DNA of 64,000 bases from a bacterium. Its GTDB lineage: Bacteria; SZUA-182; DTGQ01; JAFGSM01. Positions within the stretch are counted from its first letter, which is position 1; each line of letters opens with the position of its first letter. The notes beneath the pieces are model-generated. The model had not been told where the DNA came from and searched no databases. It saw nothing but the letters and a program-made list of their open reading frames with translations. A program made the translations under genes and the position numbers. This document shows positions 1 through 13,635 of this stretch, one piece after another. The stretch covers positions 1,000 to 64,999 of the forward strand of contig JAFGSM010000080.1 of the NCBI GenBank assembly GCA_016934595.1. The letters run 5' to 3'.

Positions 1-560
1 AGGAATTCCTCCAGGCTTATCGAGGTTTTTTGGGCGAGTGGATGGCTCGCATTCAAAGCAAGGGCCATAACATCCTCTATAAAATCGAAATATAAAAGTT
101 GATCTTCGTTGATCTTGCTGCCTATAACGCCCAAATCAAGGCCTCCATCTATAACCTCCTGTGCTATAGACAGGGTATCACCTATGCTGGAAAAAATCTT
201 TACACACGGGTTTTCTTTGCAGAATCTTTGAATAAAGGGCAAAAGGATATATGCCCCGGGGATATTACTTGAGCCCAGTTTAATTTCTCCCTTCCTGATC
301 CCCAGTATATCATTGATTGCCAGCCTCGCCTTTTTTTCGGATTCAACCATTATCCCTGCGTGCTGTAAAAGGATTTCTCCCGCCTTTGTCAAGACAATCC
401 TTTTGCCGAGACGGTCAAACAGTTTTGTTCCCAATTCCTTTTCCAATGCAATGATCTGGCAGCTTACTGAGGGCTGGCTTAGGTGAACTGCATTGGCCGC
501 CATGGAAAAGCTCTCCATCTCTGCGATCTTTATAAAACTTCTTAATTGTTCCAATGTCAT
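1..560 (-). CDS. LysR-family transcriptional regulator (partial; runs off window start)
   Basis: My translation of the reverse complement from the ATG at 560 gives MTLEQLRSFIKIAEMESFSMAANAVHLSQPSVSCQIIALEKELGTKLFDRLGKRIVLTKAG..., a typical LysR N-terminal wHTH followed by a substrate-binding domain. No stop codon before position 1, so the six-frame track does not list it. Confidence 0.7.
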   Translation of the reverse strand, partial: MTLEQLRSFIKIAEMESFSMAANAVHLSQPSVSCQIIALEKELGTKLFDRLGKRIVLTKAGEILLQHAGIMVESEKKARLAINDILGIRKGEIKLGSSNIPGAYILLPFIQRFCKENPCVKIFSSIGDTLSIAQEVIDGGLDLGVIGSKINEDQLLYFDFIEDVMALALNASHPLAQKTSISLEEF

Positions 561-575
561 ATATTCTTATCAATG

Positions 576-1451
576 TCACTTTATATCAGCCCAGGCATTT
601 TTTGTCTTTTCAATGGCCTCAGGCAAATATTTTATGATTTCCGAAATCTGTGTGGCAGGATTGGGATTAGCCAGCTTTCCAGCCCAGCGGTTGGCTTTTG
701 AGGCAAATGAGCAGGCTTCAACAATATTCATGCCCTTGTATATGAGGGCGGCGGCTATGCCCGTAATGGTGTCGCCTGTCCCGCCAATAGCCTCCAATAC
801 CTCCACAGAGGGGTCATCTACCTTCTCAACAATGGACCCATTGCAGCACACATAGTCTGTGCATCCCTTGACACATAAATATTTTGCCGAATTATTATAC
901 TTATAAGCCCTCTCTATCAGGGCAGCGGCCTCCCCCTCCAGGTGGCATATAAAACCCCTGGTGTAGGCAGGGTGGGAAGCCTTATCGTCAGCCAAAAACG
1001 CCAGTTCTCCAAGGTCAGGTGTAAAAAGGTCGTAAAGGGAGGCTTGTCCGGCAGCTTTGGCCACATACATTGATCCTGCGTCTGCTATCAGGCAAGGGAT
1101 TGGGTCAAGCCTTTGAATGACTGCCATAAGCCTTTTGTGATATTGAATGTTCGGCATAAGGTAATGAAGGACAAGCGTCTTTACCCTGTTTTTCTGAACA
1201 AACGCCTGTATTCCCTCGTATATATTGGCTCCACTTGTTTTTTGTCCTATATCGCCTGCCATTATAACATAGGGTGGGTCCAGATTAAAATACCGGCATG
1301 CTGCTGCAGCCGCCCCCACAAGGGAGGCTGTGCCACGAGTTAAAGGCAAATTCATTGCGTTTATCCTGATAATACCCTTTTCGCCAAAGTCTGCCCTCCC
1401 TGCTATGATCTCTCCAACATTACTTGGCACTGTGCCGGCAAGAAGAAGCAT
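576..1451 (-). CDS. YjeF C-terminal / NnrD-like carbohydrate-kinase-fold protein (ADP-dependent NAD(P)H-hydrate dehydratase family)
   Basis: Motifs LIADAGSM, FTPDLGELAFL, CVKGCTDYV and AIGGTGDTITG line up with the VlDADAL / LTPHpGE / vLKGsgT / GGsGDVLtG pattern of the YjeF_C/NnrD family. It is the last gene of the YeeE-TusA-DUF3343 operon. Confidence 0.5.
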   Translation of the reverse strand: MLLLAGTVPSNVGEIIAGRADFGEKGIIRINAMNLPLTRGTASLVGAAAAACRYFNLDPPYVIMAGDIGQKTSGANIYEGIQAFVQKNRVKTLVLHYLMPNIQYHKRLMAVIQRLDPIPCLIADAGSMYVAKAAGQASLYDLFTPDLGELAFLADDKASHPAYTRGFICHLEGEAAALIERAYKYNNSAKYLCVKGCTDYVCCNGSIVEKVDDPSVEVLEAIGGTGDTITGIAAALIYKGMNIVEACSFASKANRWAGKLANPNPATQISEIIKYLPEAIEKTKNAWADIK

Positions 1452-1454
1452 AAA

Positions 1455-2003
1455 TTAGGCCTCCGCTCCGCCCAGGAGATGTCTTATCTCTTCATAGGCC
1501 ACATTTAATGTGTAAGCGCAGAGGCTAAAACCGATCTGCGCTGGCCCTTCGCATTCATTAAGGGTTTTTCCTATCATCCGGTCAGCAAGATATGGGACAT
1601 CCGGACAACCACCTCCGGATATATTGACTATCTTCAGATTCCCTTTTTCAACGGTTATCTTCATGTTTGCTGCACGCACCATAAGATAACCGCCGAAGTC
1701 TTTTACCCTGCATAATTCCAGAGGGGACGTCGTTTCGTCCGACACAGGAACGATATTGAGCGGAGGGTTCCCGGATTCTTCAAGCTCCCTTGTCATAACA
1801 GTCTGCTCAATCAGATCGAAGGCCACGACAAGGTCGCACCCTGTCCTTATATGCGGAGGAGGCGCCATCAGGCGCACCTTAAAGCCGGCCTTTTTCAGTG
1901 TCTTCTCTGCCCTTATGGCCTGGCCTGCCTCCTGAAAAACAAAAAGCCCCCGTGCCTCTTCTCCTTTAGAATCAACCTTTTTCTTTAGAATATCTTTTAG
2001 CAT
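1455..2003 (-). CDS. DUF3343 (Pfam 'putative Se/S carrier protein-like') domain protein
   Basis: The N-terminal half (FVFQEAGQAIRAEKTLKKAGFKVRLMAPPPHIRTGCDLVVAF) matches the DUF3343 fold with its conserved Cys. The C-terminal half is uncharacterised and carries a GGGC motif. Only a 3-bp gap separates it from the downstream gene. Confidence 0.5.
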   Translation of the reverse strand: MLKDILKKKVDSKGEEARGLFVFQEAGQAIRAEKTLKKAGFKVRLMAPPPHIRTGCDLVVAFDLIEQTVMTRELEESGNPPLNIVPVSDETTSPLELCRVKDFGGYLMVRAANMKITVEKGNLKIVNISGGGCPDVPYLADRMIGKTLNECEGPAQIGFSLCAYTLNVAYEEIRHLLGGAEA

Positions 2004-2126
2004 GAAAAACCCGTGCCTTCATCTTTAAAATCCTGGGTTCCGGCTTTCGCCGGAATGACAGGAAAGGTTATTTTCATCTCCCTTTGTGAATCGGAGATTC
2101 ATGGGCGTTTCAAGAAAATCTACTTT

Positions 2127-2339
2127 CTACTTTTTAAGGGTAAGGATGAATTCGTCCCCCTCCTCTTTACATTCAATCTTCCATCCTTCATGTTCAGCCA
2201 ATCTGGAGATGTTGTCCCTCGAAGTGCCTGTGTCGACAATCACCTCAAATGTCCCCCTTCCCAATTCCTTCATCTTGTTCCTTGTCAAAACAACCGGTTG
2301 CGGGCAGGACAATCCCCTTGCATCAACTTTGTTAATCAT
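2127..2339 (-). CDS. TusA-like sulfurtransferase (CPxP motif)
   Basis: A 70-aa protein with the canonical N-terminal RGLSCPQPVV motif of the TusA/SirA family. The RBS aaaggagg sits just upstream of the ATG on the minus strand. Confidence 0.8.
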   Translation of the reverse strand: MINKVDARGLSCPQPVVLTRNKMKELGRGTFEVIVDTGTSRDNISRLAEHEGWKIECKEEGDEFILTLKK

Positions 2340-2450
2340 TATGTTTCCTCCTTTTTGTGGTTCCGGCTAGAGCCGTTAATTTCTTTGTAACCCCCATGAC
2401 CTTGCAGTCACAACGAAGCATAAAGTGGTGAACTATTACAATTTTTTAAT

Positions 2451-3521
2451 TCAAGCGGTTTGCCTCATGCCAAAGCCAATGCCTAAACAAACTATAATCC
2501 CTATTATTACAGATGCAGGGCCCCATACGGACGGACCTGTGGGGGCGCTTGCCATCGCAAAATTATGTGCAAAAGCGGCTCCGGCCAGCATCCCGAGTAC
2601 AAATATGGCTGCATCTCCATCCCCCTCGCCTGACATGAACAACTGCCTTCCAGGGCACCCCCCCGCAAGCGCAAATGCAAGGCCGGCCAGCACCATGCCT
2701 CCGAAATTCCATAAATGGTTGCTATGGGCTATTGGCTGGCCTGTTATTCCAGGTTGGAACTGCCTGAAAACAAGATTTGTAATAAAAGCTCCGGCTATCA
2801 AGGCAATAACCCCGGAAATAAGATGCGTGTCGCGAATCAGTATAATATCCCTGAATGCGCCCATTGTGCAAAACCTGGTCCTCTGTGCCAGGAATCCTAT
2901 GATTATGGCAATGCTAAGGGATATAAGAACAGGGGCATATTGCGCCCCTGGACCGCTTTCACTGAAAAAAAGGCCGCCTGTAGGGAGCTTTGGCCGGAAA
3001 AGAAGGAGGAGAAGGAATGCAATCATGGTGACAGGAAACAGCAGCCCTGCGAATGTGTTTGACTTATGGTTCCGGCCCAGACTATACCCCGATTTTATAA
3101 AAAGGACGCCGATCCATACCCCAACAACAAGACCCAATATCCCTAAAATGGCATTGCCATCCCCGCCAGCGAGCCTGAGCATGGCGCGCCATGGGCATCC
3201 AAGGAAAACAAGCGACCCTGTCATGGCAAAAAAGCCCAAGATAAACCTTGCGATGGGGGAAGATCCTCCTCTGGGCTTATATTCTTTAAAAAGCAATGCG
3301 GCGATAAATGCCCCAAGCACAAAACCGATGATCTCAGGCCTCATGTATTGCACAACCGCCGCACGGTGAAAACCCAGTGCCCCTGCAATATCCCTTTCCA
3401 TACAGGCCACGCATATCCCCATATTTTTGGGGTTTCCCAGCCTTTGTAAGATGGAGGCAAAGACGCCTATGATTGATCCCACAATGACAATGCCCTTCCT
3501 GGTTGTAAAGAATTTTGACAT
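2451..3521 (-). CDS. YeeE/YedE-family membrane transporter (thiosulfate/sulfur- or selenium-compound uptake)
   Basis: A 356-aa polytopic membrane protein with two repeated halves and conserved Cys-containing motifs (CVACMERDIAGALG and ALAGGCPGRQLF) typical of YeeE/YedE. It is immediately followed by a TusA-like gene, as in the known yeeE-yeeD pairs. Confidence 0.75.
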   Translation of the reverse strand: MSKFFTTRKGIVIVGSIIGVFASILQRLGNPKNMGICVACMERDIAGALGFHRAAVVQYMRPEIIGFVLGAFIAALLFKEYKPRGGSSPIARFILGFFAMTGSLVFLGCPWRAMLRLAGGDGNAILGILGLVVGVWIGVLFIKSGYSLGRNHKSNTFAGLLFPVTMIAFLLLLLFRPKLPTGGLFFSESGPGAQYAPVLISLSIAIIIGFLAQRTRFCTMGAFRDIILIRDTHLISGVIALIAGAFITNLVFRQFQPGITGQPIAHSNHLWNFGGMVLAGLAFALAGGCPGRQLFMSGEGDGDAAIFVLGMLAGAAFAHNFAMASAPTGPSVWGPASVIIGIIVCLGIGFGMRQTA

Positions 3522-3806
3522 ACTGTCGTAACCCCCCTTTCGTTTTAGATAAACAAGGCAGATTAGTAATTATTCAATATGCTGCTAATATGGCCCATAT
3601 AGCCTCTTTAGAAATTGCAGTTGTAAACTATTATATTATTAATAAAATCAATATGTCAAATTGAAATTTTAAATAATAGCCCCCTTTTGAATCAGAAATA
3701 ACTATATTTACGAGTCCATCAATATTTCGGTATGCGTGTTTCATTATTTTATAAATAGCAACCTTCAAATTGACAGATTTCCCTTCATATAGTAAGCTTT
3801 TCTGAT

Positions 3807-9424: not shown

Positions 9425-11080
9425 ATGAAATTTAAGGGGGGAAATATGCATAAAAGATATCTATATAATAATAAACGCCCATGTCACCTTATATCGCCAC
9501 AAATAATGAGAATAAACAACGAGATTTATTTTAGGAACAAATATCCATGGCACTTTGGAGCCGCCACGAATCATGAAAATCGAACCTATTTTCGAGACAA
9601 ACGCTCATGCCGCTTCGCTGCGCCACGAATCATGAAAATAAACAACGATGTTTATTTTCGAGACAACAAGAATAAAAACCCTTTGTCCTCGATGTGCCTT
9701 TCTGTAATGATTGTAATGATGATGATAATATTGCCTTGTCTCATTTCTGGCCATGCTATAGCAGACGAAAACAGTGCATTCCCGTTCTATCCATCTTTAA
9801 TCATTCCGGCAGCAGACGGGGGAATAGGTCTGGATGCCTTTAAGGCCGCTATGTCCTGCAGAGGATGTCACCTTTCTACCTTCAAGGAATGGGAGGGATC
9901 AACACACTCCCTTGCCTTTAAAGACCCTGTATTTCTTTCGATGTGCAGATTAGGTTCCAAAGCAACAAACGGACAAACGGACAAATTGTGTCTTGGATGC
10001 CATACACCCATAGGGCTTATTACATCCGATATAACAACCCCTGATGATGAAACTAAGGCAAATCAAATCTCCAAAGATGGCGTTCAGTGCGATTTTTGCC
10101 ATGTCGTAAGCAATACGACCTATAACAAAGCCAAGACCGCTTCCCCCCAGAATGCGTCATTCCTTGTCCAGCCAGGGGAAATTAAATGGGGGCCGATAGA
10201 CAATTGTGAATCCACATTCCACAAATCGGAATTTTCCGAGCTTCATACCAGTTCCAAGTTTTGTGGCAACTGCCACAATATCTTCTTGACAGGCCAGGAT
10301 ATCAAGATTGTAAAGACCTACGACGAATGGGAAAAATCCGTTTACGCCCAGAAAGGTATAGAGTGCCAGGACTGCCATATGATGCCTGTTGAATTGGCAA
10401 AAATAGCGGCAGACAAACTGGAAAAACCTAAAAATTCCGGTAAGGCCGCATCCGTTGCGCCCTTGAGAGAAAATATACATGTGCACAGGTTTGTCGGCGG
10501 AGGATTCGATCTGGAAAAAGGCCCACGCGTAACTAATCAGCAGAAAGAGACGGAAAAAAGGCTAAAAAGCGCGGCAAGACTGGATATCGATGTTAAGCCC
10601 TCCCCTTCCTCAAAAGGCAGCCTGGTCTTAACGGTAACCGTACACAATGAAAGGGCGGGCCATAATCTGCCTACAGGGATCCCTGGCATAAGGCAGTTAT
10701 GGCTTGAGGTAATCATCTCAGACAAAGGCTCAAAAGAGGTGTTTCGTTCAGGCGGCCTGGATAAAGACGGAAATATCCAAAAAGACGCAAAGCGCCTTGG
10801 TGTTGCAGCCGTTGACAAATCAGGCGACCCTGTATATAAACCCTGGGAAATTGCGGCATTAAAGACAGATACAACCATCCCTCCGAAGGGAAAAGGGGGG
10901 TTCAAATTCGACGTAAGCCTTCCCGATGACATTGCGTGGCCGATGACTGCGAAAGCCATTCTTCACTACAGGGCATTCAGTCCATCATTGCTTAAGGATC
11001 TTTTGCCGGATGCCCCTCGTGAGATACCTGTCTTTGACATGGCAACATCAGAGATCGCCATACAAGGCCCTGTTCTCTGA
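9425..11080 (+). CDS. Multiheme c-type cytochrome (five CxxCH motifs), secreted
   Basis: CRGCH, CLGCH, CDFCH, CGNCH and CQDCH are present. A signal-peptide-like segment MCLSVMIVMMMIILPCLISGHAIA sits at about aa 90, which suggests the real start is near 9692. The first roughly 270 nt of the listed ORF are the tandem repeat units. Confidence 0.8.
   Translation: MKFKGGNMHKRYLYNNKRPCHLISPQIMRINNEIYFRNKYPWHFGAATNHENRTYFRDKRSCRFAAPRIMKINNDVYFRDNKNKNPLSSMCLSVMIVMMMIILPCLISGHAIADENSAFPFYPSLIIPAADGGIGLDAFKAAMSCRGCHLSTFKEWEGSTHSLAFKDPVFLSMCRLGSKATNGQTDKLCLGCHTPIGLITSDITTPDDETKANQISKDGVQCDFCHVVSNTTYNKAKTASPQNASFLVQPGEIKWGPIDNCESTFHKSEFSELHTSSKFCGNCHNIFLTGQDIKIVKTYDEWEKSVYAQKGIECQDCHMMPVELAKIAADKLEKPKNSGKAASVAPLRENIHVHRFVGGGFDLEKGPRVTNQQKETEKRLKSAARLDIDVKPSPSSKGSLVLTVTVHNERAGHNLPTGIPGIRQLWLEVIISDKGSKEVFRSGGLDKDGNIQKDAKRLGVAAVDKSGDPVYKPWEIAALKTDTTIPPKGKGGFKFDVSLPDDIAWPMTAKAILHYRAFSPSLLKDLLPDAPREIPVFDMATSEIAIQGPVL
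9473..9664 (+). repeat. Three tandem units (66, 60 and 66 bp) of the dispersed structured repeat family, immediately upstream of or inside the 5' end of the multiheme cytochrome ORF
   Basis: The three units are at 9473-9538, 9539-9598 and 9599-9664. Each contains CCACgAAtcATGAgAAT-loop-ATTTTcGAG-type hairpins (for example GAAAATAAACAacgaTGTTTATTTTC, an 11-bp perfect stem). All three are in-frame with the cytochrome ORF (…RFAAPRIMKINNDVYFRD…). Confidence 0.7.
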
Positions 11081-12029: not shown

Positions 12030-13040
12030 ATGACACCTTGCTTTCACCCCAGGCTGGTCAATGGCCCTTTCCATGACCCTGCCTTATATATAGATTTCCT
12101 CTATCAAAACAGGGCCATCCTTTTTGATATAGGAGACATATCGGCGCTGACGACAAAACATATCCATAAAATCACGGATGTCTTTGTCACGCATACCCAC
12201 ATGGATCATTTCATAGGATTGGACTATCTGATAAGGCTATTTCTTGGCAGGGACAAGCGGCTTTCCATATACGGCCCCCCAAGGATAATCGATAATGTGG
12301 CAGGAAAGCTCTCGGCCTATACATGGAATCTGGTTGACAATTTTGAAAACAGTTTCGAGATCCATGTCTTTGAATCGCACACAGATCACATAGAAAAGGC
12401 GATTCTGAAATGCCATAACCTCTTCCAAAAGGAGATGTGCCTTGAAAAAGCGCCTTTCAAAGACAAACTCCTGGACGAAGATGAATTTAGCATCCATACG
12501 GCCTTTCTTGATCATTTTACACCATGCCTGACATTCTGTCTGAAAGAGAAGTCCCATATAAATATCAAAAAGGACGTATTGGACACACTTGGCCTGCCTT
12601 CCGGCCCGTGGCTAAACCAGTTGAAAACAGCGATAAGGCAGCAGGAGCCGGATAATTATCCGATAACGATCAAGGCCAAGAGTTCGGATGATTCTCAGGG
12701 GCAGAAGACTACCCTGGGCTGGGTCAAACAAAAAGGCCTTTTCACAATTTCACAGGGGCAAAAGATAGCCTATGTTACAGATATAGGGTACACACAGGAA
12801 AATATATCCAGGTTAACCTCTTTTGCAATGGATGCGGACTATCTGTTTTGCGAGGCCGCATTCCTTGAAGAAGACAGCCAATTAGCGAAAAAGAAATGCC
12901 ATCTTACAGCGCATCAGGCAGGGCTGATAGCCAGACAGGCAAATGCAAGGAAACTTATCCCTTTCCATTTTTCCCCAAGATATCAGGGCAGGGAAGACCT
13001 TATTTACAAAGAGGCTGAAAGGTCCTTTACTTCTTCATAA
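12030..13040 (+). CDS. MBL-fold metallo-hydrolase (RNase Z/ElaC-like)
   Basis: Contains the HxHxDH motif (VTHTHMDHFIGLDYL) and downstream His/Asp ligands (DHF..., H at TAHQAG) typical of the metallo-beta-lactamase superfamily. Confidence 0.65.
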   Translation: MTPCFHPRLVNGPFHDPALYIDFLYQNRAILFDIGDISALTTKHIHKITDVFVTHTHMDHFIGLDYLIRLFLGRDKRLSIYGPPRIIDNVAGKLSAYTWNLVDNFENSFEIHVFESHTDHIEKAILKCHNLFQKEMCLEKAPFKDKLLDEDEFSIHTAFLDHFTPCLTFCLKEKSHINIKKDVLDTLGLPSGPWLNQLKTAIRQQEPDNYPITIKAKSSDDSQGQKTTLGWVKQKGLFTISQGQKIAYVTDIGYTQENISRLTSFAMDADYLFCEAAFLEEDSQLAKKKCHLTAHQAGLIARQANARKLIPFHFSPRYQGREDLIYKEAERSFTSS

Positions 13041-13635
13041 CCCAAGCGCCATCCTCTTGCTGTATCCACCAACCGGCAGGAGTACTTTTTTGCCAGCTTT
13101 TGGAAAATATCCTTTGTATCTCTTCCATATGCTCTGGCCCTAAGTTGTTTGCCTTCAGTATCTCCTCATATAACAACTTGCGATCCTTGTTTTCATCATC
13201 AACCAGGCGCATCAGATTCGACTTTTCTTTTAATCCAAGCCCCTGCAACTCACGTGCTTCGATCAGTCCCCTGTTTGTCTCCCCTATCCTGCCTGACTCA
13301 TAAAAAGGCCTTAAGCCTGAAAACCTGTTCTTTAAAGACTCCTTTAAAGAACGGATTGCTGGCGTTGTCACCTCAATATCCATTGCAGCATACGCAGCCG
13401 TGACAAATATGGCAAAATCATTCGTCCTGTTGCGAAGCATTGTTTCCTTATCCCCGCCCCCTGAAGGGGCCTCATCTGTTCGTGTATTATCCGTTCCACC
13501 TCCCCTTACCTCACCTACGATCTCATCAGCAGCCTTCTGGACCTCTGCTGCCGGAAAATATATGTTGACAGTCACACATGCAGCCACAACAAACAAAAAC
13601 ATAACGCATAGGACAACAATCCTTTTCTCTGACAT
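13027..13635 (-). CDS. YdbL-like periplasmic protein (DUF1318)
   Basis: Signal peptide plus the conserved DDENKDRKLLYEEILKAN motif of DUF1318/YdbL. It lies directly downstream of an AsmA/YdbH-like gene, as in the E. coli ydbH-ynbE-ydbL operon (no ynbE is visible here). Confidence 0.55.
   Translation of the reverse strand: MSEKRIVVLCVMFLFVVAACVTVNIYFPAAEVQKAADEIVGEVRGGGTDNTRTDEAPSGGGDKETMLRNRTNDFAIFVTAAYAAMDIEVTTPAIRSLKESLKNRFSGLRPFYESGRIGETNRGLIEARELQGLGLKEKSNLMRLVDDENKDRKLLYEEILKANNLGPEHMEEIQRIFSKSWQKSTPAGWWIQQEDGAWVMKK

Follow-up and report, generated by a model that had tools for sequence, protein, structure and literature searches.

Organization of the yedE cassette

We analyzed a 64,000-nucleotide stretch of bacterial DNA (assembly GCA_016934595.1, contig JAFGSM010000080.1, positions 1,000 to 64,999; referred to here as the window) that begins with a cassette of five co-directional minus-strand genes encoding a YedE transporter, a TusA-like carrier, a DUF3343-DUF8182 protein, a kinase-fold protein, and a LysR regulator. 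Our analysis, all of it computational, centers on the third and fourth of these proteins, which sequence comparisons support well as one obligate two-subunit module that forms a single polypeptide in some lineages. The place of this module in a selenium neighborhood is likewise well supported.

Open reading frame (ORF) listing, translation, and family scans recovered all five genes in the arrangement that the original prediction had described: yedE (3521 to 2451; 356 amino acids [aa]), the tusA-like gene (2339 to 2127; 70 aa), the DUF3343-DUF8182 gene (2003 to 1455; 182 aa), the kinase-fold gene (1451 to 576; 291 aa), and, at the operon end as claimed, the LysR gene (560 to 1), which the window start cuts after its first 186 residues. 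Intergenic gaps along the operon were 111, 123, 3, and 15 bp, so that the claimed gap range of 3 to 111 bp has to be extended to 123 bp. The stop codon of the DUF3343-DUF8182 gene lies 3 bp ahead of the kinase-fold ATG, and the LysR gene begins 15 bp past the kinase-fold stop codon. A public 2.5-kb Logan contig (L001), which is identical to window bases 1 to 2109 (0 mismatches over 2109 bp), allowed us to complete the LysR protein, which matched HTH_1 and LysR_substrate, to 299 aa.

The yedE ATG is found approximately 109 bp downstream of a perfect sigma-70 consensus, TTGACA-18-TATAAT (3659 to 3630, minus strand; 12/12 consensus matches), which we consider a putative promoter. Because of this consensus promoter, and because terminator-like sites inside the region were not more common than in shuffled sequence, co-transcription of the five genes is plausible. 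An AT-rich, 22-nucleotide imperfect inverted repeat (3634 to 3678; 77% complementary) overlaps this putative promoter and could be an operator, for example for the LysR regulator.

Family assignments of the transporter, carrier, and regulator

The transporter scored 486.4 bits with the selenium-YedE model TIGR04112 (seleno_YedE; cutoff, 200) over model positions 2 to 337 of 337. It fell below both models for the thiosulfate transporter TsuA (NF041049, 26.1 bits versus a cutoff of 645; NF052577, 46.9 bits versus 400), with a partial match of about 115 residues. Cysteine motifs in the protein are GICVAC (C37/C40), GCPWR (C109), RFCTMG (C218), and GGCPGR (C289). These scores assign the transporter to the selenium-type YedE proteins and not to the thiosulfate transporter TsuA/YeeE, narrowing the earlier description of a YeeE/YedE sulfur/selenium-compound transporter to its selenium part.

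The 70-aa carrier is a single-domain TusA-like protein (PF01206, 64.8 bits versus 28.6) with the active-cysteine motif DARGLSCPQP, in which Cys12 occupies the CPQP segment, in agreement with its earlier description as a CPxP sulfur carrier. Its best NCBIfam match was the N-terminal domain of YedF (TIGR03527), at 58.5 bits under a cutoff of 110 and spanning only the N-terminal 64 of 194 positions; a second YedF model (NF008242) gave 27.5 bits versus 79. We rejected an assignment as YedF since both YedF cutoffs were failed and the two-domain architecture is absent. The gene does hold the position of YedF or TsuB beside the transporter.

The full-length regulator passed the model for selenium metabolism-associated LysR proteins (NF040786, 257.4 bits versus a cutoff of 250; the window fragment alone scored 150.6 bits), and we assign it to this group (LysR_Se) by that match. 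YedE, YedF, DUF3343, and LysR_Se are predicted selenium genes, with YedE found only in selenium-utilizing organisms and LysR_Se only in organisms that contain SelD (Lin et al. 2015, PMC5322559). By family assignment, the entire operon belongs to this known, still only predicted, YedE/YedF/DUF3343/LysR_Se gene set.

A DUF3343-DUF8182 protein paired with a distinct kinase-fold family

The 182-aa protein carries the DUF3343 (Se_S_carrier) domain that had been recognized originally (1749 to 1949, minus strand; residues 19 to 85; PF11823, 56.9 bits versus 25) and, by precomputed Pfam hits, a second, C-terminal domain that had been overlooked, DUF8182 (1455 to 1748, minus strand). DUF8182 (PF26554) was listed in the precomputed Pfam hits for the exact protein and for all 120 best homologues; a scan of residues 87 to 182 with our local Pfam copy returned no DUF8182 model and hence no score. 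Three cysteines are invariant in 75 orthologues: C56 (GCD), C133 (SGGGCPDVPYLA), and C162 (LCxY). A profile search of the PDB found no sequence relative of DUF8182, and in hhalign comparisons neither the TusA nor the DUF3343 alignment reached a probability of 2% with DUF8182, so that DUF8182 is not a detectable duplicate of either. Our literature search found no paper containing the term DUF8182.

The 291-aa protein had been described as having a YjeF_C/NnrD-like, carbohydrate kinase-type fold. Its score with PF01256 (Carb_kinase) was 26.8 bits, just under the gathering score of 27, and with TIGR00196 it was 21.1 bits versus a cutoff of 129.85; no curated NCBIfam model covers the protein. An AlphaFold2 model (predicted local distance difference test [pLDDT] score, 91; predicted template modeling [pTM] score, 0.92) displays a three-layer alpha/beta/alpha ribokinase-like fold with GGxGD, and its best fold matches were NnrD structures. 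The model thus places the protein in the ribokinase superfamily, in which ribokinase, PfkB, ThiD, ThiM, PdxK, and YjeF_C have this fold in common, and closest in fold to NnrD/YjeF_C. The fold part of the earlier description was therefore correct, but membership in NnrD failed at both the Pfam and TIGRFAM cutoffs.

Conserved motifs of the kinase-fold protein are GGTGD, TPDxGE, IADAGxMYVAK, and HPxYTRG. In an alignment of 20 homologues with 45 to 66% identity to the window protein, 65 columns were invariant, including IADAGxMYVAK, PDxGExAFLAD, HPxxTRG, VKG, and GGTGD, and among the invariant charged residues were R39, D67, D124, K132, D146, E149, D155, R165, K195, D227, and R255. GGTGD was kept in 347 of 351 full-length family members, which is as expected for an active phosphotransferase-type enzyme.

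Public annotations name relatives of the protein "sugar kinase" or "NAD(P)H-hydrate dehydratase" (P0001, P0007 to P0009, P0065, P0076, P0089, and P0104), and NCBI and JGI would thereby make it a genuine NAD(P)HX dehydratase (NnrD) that neighbors selenium genes by chance. These names, the weak PF01256 match, and the NnrD structures among the best fold matches speak for such an enzyme. Against it, besides the failed cutoffs, similarity to solved structures in a PDB profile search did not extend beyond the GGxGD region (E = 2e-4 to TM0922). A family profile search retrieved only 439 representatives among 1.84 billion cluster representatives (E <= 1e-3), indicating a compact family that does not merge with the very large canonical NnrD family. 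The TPHxGE motif of NnrD reads TPDxGE here, in an alignment that is weak and not significant alone. The near-invariant adjacency to the DUF3343-DUF8182 gene and the gene fusions described below also oppose a chance neighborhood. We rejected a true NnrD as hardly credible given the failed cutoffs, the small and distinct family, and the near-invariant pairing. Considering scores and gene context together, both database names are probably overpredictions for this family and should not be propagated.

The kinase-fold gene had been singled out as a nonstandard member of the operon, and the YedE/YedF/DUF3343/LysR_Se gene set as published (PMC5322559) indeed lacks it. The sole "kinase" in that study is O-phosphoseryl-tRNA kinase (PSTK), and no kinase-fold protein is therefore among its candidate genes. 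A second survey likewise placed yedF and duf3343, and no kinase, among the top genes overlapping selD (Kayrouz et al. preprint).

Conserved linkage and natural fusions of the two proteins

We scanned one genome per GTDB species, which yielded at least 551 relatives, and kept the best-scoring 80 loci, which belong to other genomes, for neighbor analysis by tblastn and de novo ORF clustering. Of the 76 loci with sufficient upstream sequence, 75 had a DUF3343-DUF8182 gene no more than 100 bp upstream of the kinase-fold gene and on its strand. YedE was upstream of the kinase-fold gene within 2.5 kb in 52 of 60 loci and within 8 kb in 54 of 60. Linkage of the kinase-fold gene with YedE and DUF3343 in other genomes, which the original prediction had made the test of a functional connection, is thus conserved. 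Host taxa included Thermodesulfobacteriota, Nitrospirota (Thermodesulfovibrio), Bacillota/Syntrophomonadaceae, and Synergistaceae. DUF8182 and the kinase-fold partner each comprise >4,000 protein clusters and occur in at least 551 species-level genomes. DUF8182 and its dedicated NnrD-like partner extend the selenium gene set by a widespread and obligate pair not described before. The conserved unit is this pair of proteins, which the original prediction had not recognized.

In 51 of the 80 loci, a TusA gene lies between YedE and the DUF3343 gene, giving the order YedE, TusA, DUF3343-DUF8182, and kinase (Type A), to which the window cassette conforms. The spacer between the tusA-like and DUF3343-DUF8182 genes is 123 bp in the window (2004 to 2126) and near zero in most related loci, as follows from a TusA end that lies approximately 540 to 560 bp before the kinase-fold gene in most of them, roughly the length of the DUF3343 gene. 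The window spacer contains a perfect hairpin, TTCCGGC-GAAA-GCCGGAA (2038 to 2060, minus strand), present as a single copy in the window. On the complementary strand, the spacer reads "...PAFAGMTG..." within a spurious ORF (2013 to 2390), a reading that we take to be typical of small elements resembling repetitive extragenic palindromes (REP) or miniature inverted-repeat transposable elements in many environmental genomes. Because related loci lack the spacer, we set the hairpin aside as a regulatory element; it is probably a REP-type insertion and not part of the system.

Other genes recurred near the cassette. In approximately 10 Type A loci, a gene for a Cys-rich protein of about 82 aa (CICC; DUF1858 at 18 bits, below threshold) was directly downstream of the kinase-fold gene (L045, L047, L051, L057, L061, L068 [1246 to 1494], L070, L077, L078, and L084); this protein might serve the module as a thiol/disulfide redox partner. 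Genes for proteins like the D component of 2-hydroxyglutaryl-CoA dehydratase (PF06050, 396 bits) were near the cassette in seven Type A loci (L011, L049, L050, L051, L054, L062, and L078 [12178 to 13458]), accompanied by genes that look like those for BcrAD/BadFG-type activases. These dehydratase and activase families are STRING partners of YedE/YedF/DUF3343 (Lin et al. 2015, PMC5322559). In loci with only the pair (Electrothrix L016 and L041), the neighbors gave no functional clue.

A search of representative proteins also returned proteins of 470 to 590 aa that join an N-terminal DUF3343-DUF8182 part to the kinase-fold domain. These fusions formed about 40 clusters at 90% identity, one of which held 69 sequences on 37 contigs, and 39 of 41 fusions kept all three cysteine motifs. 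All three fusion loci that we examined were ordered YedE, TusA, and fusion; in one of them (L089:8657-8989), a gene for glycine/sarcosine/betaine reductase selenoprotein A (GRDA) adjoins the cassette. For P0432, which at 472 aa is the shortest fusion, AlphaFold2 received an alignment that combined fusions with separately encoded proteins and predicted one compact body with a well-ordered linker (pLDDT, 91.6; pTM, 0.91). These fusions, the compact predicted fold, and the 3-bp spacing of the window genes provide Rosetta-stone evidence that the two window proteins may act as a complex.

Tight pairing, fusions, and a compact predicted assembly would fit equally well if the kinase-fold subunit, as a regulator or scaffold that binds nucleotides, let ATP/ADP status gate YedE uptake or the loading of the carrier, or if it merely stabilized the DUF8182 carrier. 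We can name no substrate for the protein, and as a matter of general chemical knowledge the chemistry between selenite and thiols needs no ATP, both of which are in line with such a noncatalytic role. Nevertheless, the retention of GGTGD in nearly all members and the many invariant charged residues form the conservation pattern of an active enzyme, and we regard a purely regulatory or scaffolding subunit as quite unlikely.

Association of the module with selD and other selenium genes

Unbiased ORF clustering of the 80 loci returned a 316-aa neighbor family in 20 loci that is SelD (TIGR00476, 366 bits versus 125). selD was found within 19 of the 51 Type A loci. Among the 42 Type A loci whose sequence reached far enough, 11 had selD immediately after the kinase gene and in the same orientation. 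Any single-copy gene of a 3-Mb genome would be expected in approximately 0.5% of loci, which gives a binomial P of about 2e-31 for selD in Type A loci. All 20 selD genes (L025, L044, L047 to L050, L052, L054, L055, L058, L064 to L067, L077, L079 to L081, L085, and L086; for example, L080:10969-11919) contain an in-frame TGA codon for selenocysteine (Sec) at the active-site GxG-U-xxK motif, and the selD-bearing organisms therefore decode Sec. Plain ORF calling shortens these TGA-bearing selD genes by about 30 residues, a truncation that probably hides the adjacency of selD from annotation-based surveys.

Other selenium markers accompanied the module as well. True YedF (219 bits) follows selD in five Type A loci, and LysR_Se (307 bits) was found in 14 loci, 13 of which were Type A. 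Of the 51 Type A loci, 27 carried one or more of SelD, LysR_Se, and YedF, and one locus (L081) forms a "complete" island of LysR_Se, YedE, TusA, DUF3343-DUF8182, kinase, Sec-containing SelD, and YedF. Together with the family matches of the window YedE (TIGR04112) and LysR (NF040786), the Sec-selD, LysR_Se, and YedF genes of the Type A loci support the link to selenium utilization that had been proposed for the operon.

We also searched the window itself by comparing its 20 largest remaining ORFs with NCBIfam, by an Rfam scan, and by a search for genes with in-frame TGA codons. The 20 ORFs comprised housekeeping, pilus, regulatory, and ATP-binding cassette (ABC) genes only; the only RNA gene was one tRNA (Arg), with no other Rfam match, and no convincing in-frame-TGA gene was found in the window. 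A 551-aa protein (9425 to 11080) had subthreshold matches to the multiheme cytochrome "(seleno)protein ExtKL" (53.5 bits versus 250) and to an UshA-like (seleno)protein family (25 bits versus 275), with no in-frame TGA detected.

A cassette with these neighbors might detoxify or store selenium, with any excess being sequestered or exported, instead of supplying SelD. The transport direction of YedE is only putative, Cys-rich carriers are able to sequester selenium, and detoxification roles have been considered for YedF (Lin et al. 2015, PMC5322559). However, the module is co-directional with and directly upstream of selD in the 11 of 42 loci noted above, LysR_Se is tied to Sec biosynthesis genes (PMC5322559), and in Methanococcus maripaludis yedE is induced by selenium starvation (up 5.3 log2-fold), not by excess (PMC11097638). 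Detoxification or storage is thus a very unlikely purpose of the cassette.

Type B loci and the question of sulfur

A second arrangement (Type B) accounted for 17 of the 80 loci and was found in Desulfobulbaceae, including cable bacteria, and in Thermodesulfatator and Desulfocapsa. The order in Type B loci is PhnD-like, NosD-like, 180-aa protein, YedE, DUF3343-DUF8182, kinase, ThiS, and 190-aa protein (L005:3829-14496 as an example; also L002, L010, L014, L021, L024, L028, L029, L032, L036, L037, L039, and L043), with optional 3' genes for a Glu-dehydrogenase-like protein, two adenylosuccinate-lyase/XcbD-like lyases, and a MoeB/ThiF-like E1 protein. The PhnD-like protein is a binding protein, the NosD-like protein is a beta-helix protein, and the 180-aa protein is membrane/tetratricopeptide repeat-like. 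The ThiS-like protein has 87 aa, the 190-aa protein has no family match and an HxH...D motif by eye, and the lyases resemble adenylosuccinate lyase and the coenzyme M enzyme XcbD. This cluster looks like an uncharacterized pathway that loads sulfur or selenium onto a ThiS-type carrier for a small molecule. Type B YedE passes TIGR04112 (384 bits). We found no selD near the 17 Type B clusters, so that this branch could serve sulfur or selenium. Kinase identity was 55% within Type A, 66% within Type B, and 45% between the two, which form separate sequence clusters; the window kinase falls in the TusA-linked Type A cluster.

The cassette might instead handle sulfur, with YedE importing thiosulfate or zero-valent sulfur, TusA and DUF3343-DUF8182 relaying a persulfide, the kinase-fold protein assisting, and the selenium association reflecting only shared chemistry of the two elements. 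In favor of sulfur, ThiS, a MoeB/ThiF-like E1 protein, and lyases follow the module in the 17 Type B loci with no selD nearby; YedE shares homology with the thiosulfate transporter YeeE/TsuA; and TusA proteins carry sulfur. Furthermore, Lin et al. (2015, PMC5322559) detected no selenium-specific DUF3343 subfamily, and deletion of yedE in M. maripaludis gave no clear selenium phenotype (PMC11097638). In contrast, the window YedE passes the selenium-YedE equivalog model and misses both TsuA cutoffs by hundreds of bits, the regulator scores above the cutoff of the LysR model for selenium metabolism, Sec-selD is in 19 of 51 loci of the same type versus approximately 0.5% expected, and YedF and the glycine reductase selenoprotein A gene also adjoin the cassette. 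The ThiS-linked kinases also form a separate cluster, and the window gene is of the TusA-linked type. We consider sulfur a possible but doubtful cargo.

Proposed role of the cassette in selenium acquisition

Considering these findings as a whole, the best explanation is a selenium-acquisition operon in which a relay from YedE to SelD proceeds via the nucleotide-dependent kinase-fold partner, to which we give a probability of roughly 0.55. The most likely role of the module is to process selenium, with use of a nucleotide, between YedE/TusA and SelD. The ATP-dependent activation that had been suggested originally likewise has the standing of a hypothesis. We infer that selenium and not sulfur is the cargo, that cysteines form the relay, and that the chemistry depends on a nucleotide; for the last of these, our hypothesis draws on the fold, the motif conservation, and the precedent of phosphorylation-driven elimination in NnrD.

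In the proposed mechanism, a selenium species would be imported by YedE and taken at the membrane by the TusA-like protein through Cys12, similarly to how TsuB acts for TsuA. C56, C133, and C162 of the DUF3343-DUF8182 protein would then hold a protein-bound Se-S species. The kinase-fold partner would spend ATP or ADP, with phosphoryl transfer driving conversion or release of the bound selenium, perhaps by phosphorylation followed by elimination as in NnrD, and a selenide equivalent would be passed to SelD. LysR_Se would set expression of the operon by selenium status.

More specifically, and only tentatively, the pair might be a nucleotide-dependent selenium-activating enzyme in which the kinase phosphorylates a selenium oxyanion or protein-bound selenium on the GGGC(133) loop for relay to SelD. 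Possible analogues are the ATP-driven activation of a sulfur oxyacid by sulfiredoxin and the phosphorylate-then-eliminate chemistry of NnrD. If this were true, scarce selenium would be committed to a cysteine relay that delivers selenide or phosphorylated selenium to SelD, and the pair would provide the missing bacterial "selenium delivery" step along with a basis for discrimination between selenium and sulfur.

Several points weigh against a nucleotide-dependent selenium relay. Selenite reacts with thiols spontaneously, without ATP, and the need for a nucleotide-dependent step is therefore not obvious. The 64-kb window contains no selD, selA, selB, tRNA-Sec, or recognizable selenoprotein gene. 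The 80 loci were the best scoring of at least 551 and not a random sample, and sulfur is possible in the Type B subfamily (17/80), which adjoins ThiS/ThiF sulfur-carrier genes with no selD nearby. Neither the kinase-fold nor the DUF8182 family has a member that experiments tie to selenium, and our literature search, which included a 2026 selenoproteome review, found no paper tying either family to the element. Finally, deletion of the M. maripaludis yedE operon had no clear selenium-transport phenotype, so that the cargo of YedE is only putative, and according to the same authors no organism is known to have a selenium-specific transporter (PMC11097638).

How bacteria route trace selenium to SelD amid a large sulfur excess is an unresolved problem for which no bacterial delivery protein has been demonstrated, and the YedE/YedF/DUF3343 set has been a comparative-genomic prediction since 2015. 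The module described here is a concrete candidate for the selenium-delivery step upstream of SelD in anaerobic bacteria, and its natural fusions offer ready-made material for biochemistry.

Comparison with known systems

The closest known counterpart of the cassette is the YedE-YedF/DUF3343/LysR_Se set (PMC5322559), with which it shares the TIGR04112 transporter, an adjoining TusA-type carrier, DUF3343, an NF040786 LysR regulator, and frequent selD. The cassette differs from this set in that its 70-aa carrier has only one domain and scores below the YedF cutoff, DUF3343 is fused to the additional Cys-bearing DUF8182 domain, and a ribokinase-fold obligate partner, absent from the published set, is present.

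The thiosulfate uptake system TsuA (YeeE)-TsuB (YeeD), as described in one report (PMC11582611; Tanaka et al. 2020 cited there), also pairs a YeeE/YedE-fold membrane protein containing conserved Cys with a following TusA-like cytoplasmic protein needed for uptake. TsuAB has no DUF3343-DUF8182 protein or kinase-fold partner and is tied to cysteine synthesis, unlike the present cassette, which is tied to selD and LysR_Se.

ThiS/MoaD-type carriers with a ThiF/MoeB E1 protein provide the context that directly follows the module in Type B loci and that is absent from this window. This context suggests that the module can feed sulfur or selenium to a carrier protein. It encodes no rhodanese or cysteine desulfurase in the Type B loci, and the module may take the role of these enzymes there.

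NnrD/YjeF_C proteins (PDB 2ax3, 6efx, 2r3b, and 3rph) are only 13 to 20% identical to the kinase-fold protein. Unlike NnrD, the kinase-fold protein never occurred with a YjeF_N epimerase in the examined loci and always occurred with DUF3343-DUF8182, and it has its own IADAGxMYVAK, TPDxGE, and HPxYTRG motifs and an N-terminal beta-strand extension.

Often, the gene that immediately follows the module encodes SelD, the enzyme known to activate selenium with ATP. The glycine-rich loop of SelD with Cys or Sec (GxG-U/C-xxK) has a superficial likeness to SGGGCPD in DUF8182, but the PurM-like fold of SelD and the ribokinase-like fold of the module kinase share no homology, and the module accompanies SelD rather than replacing it.

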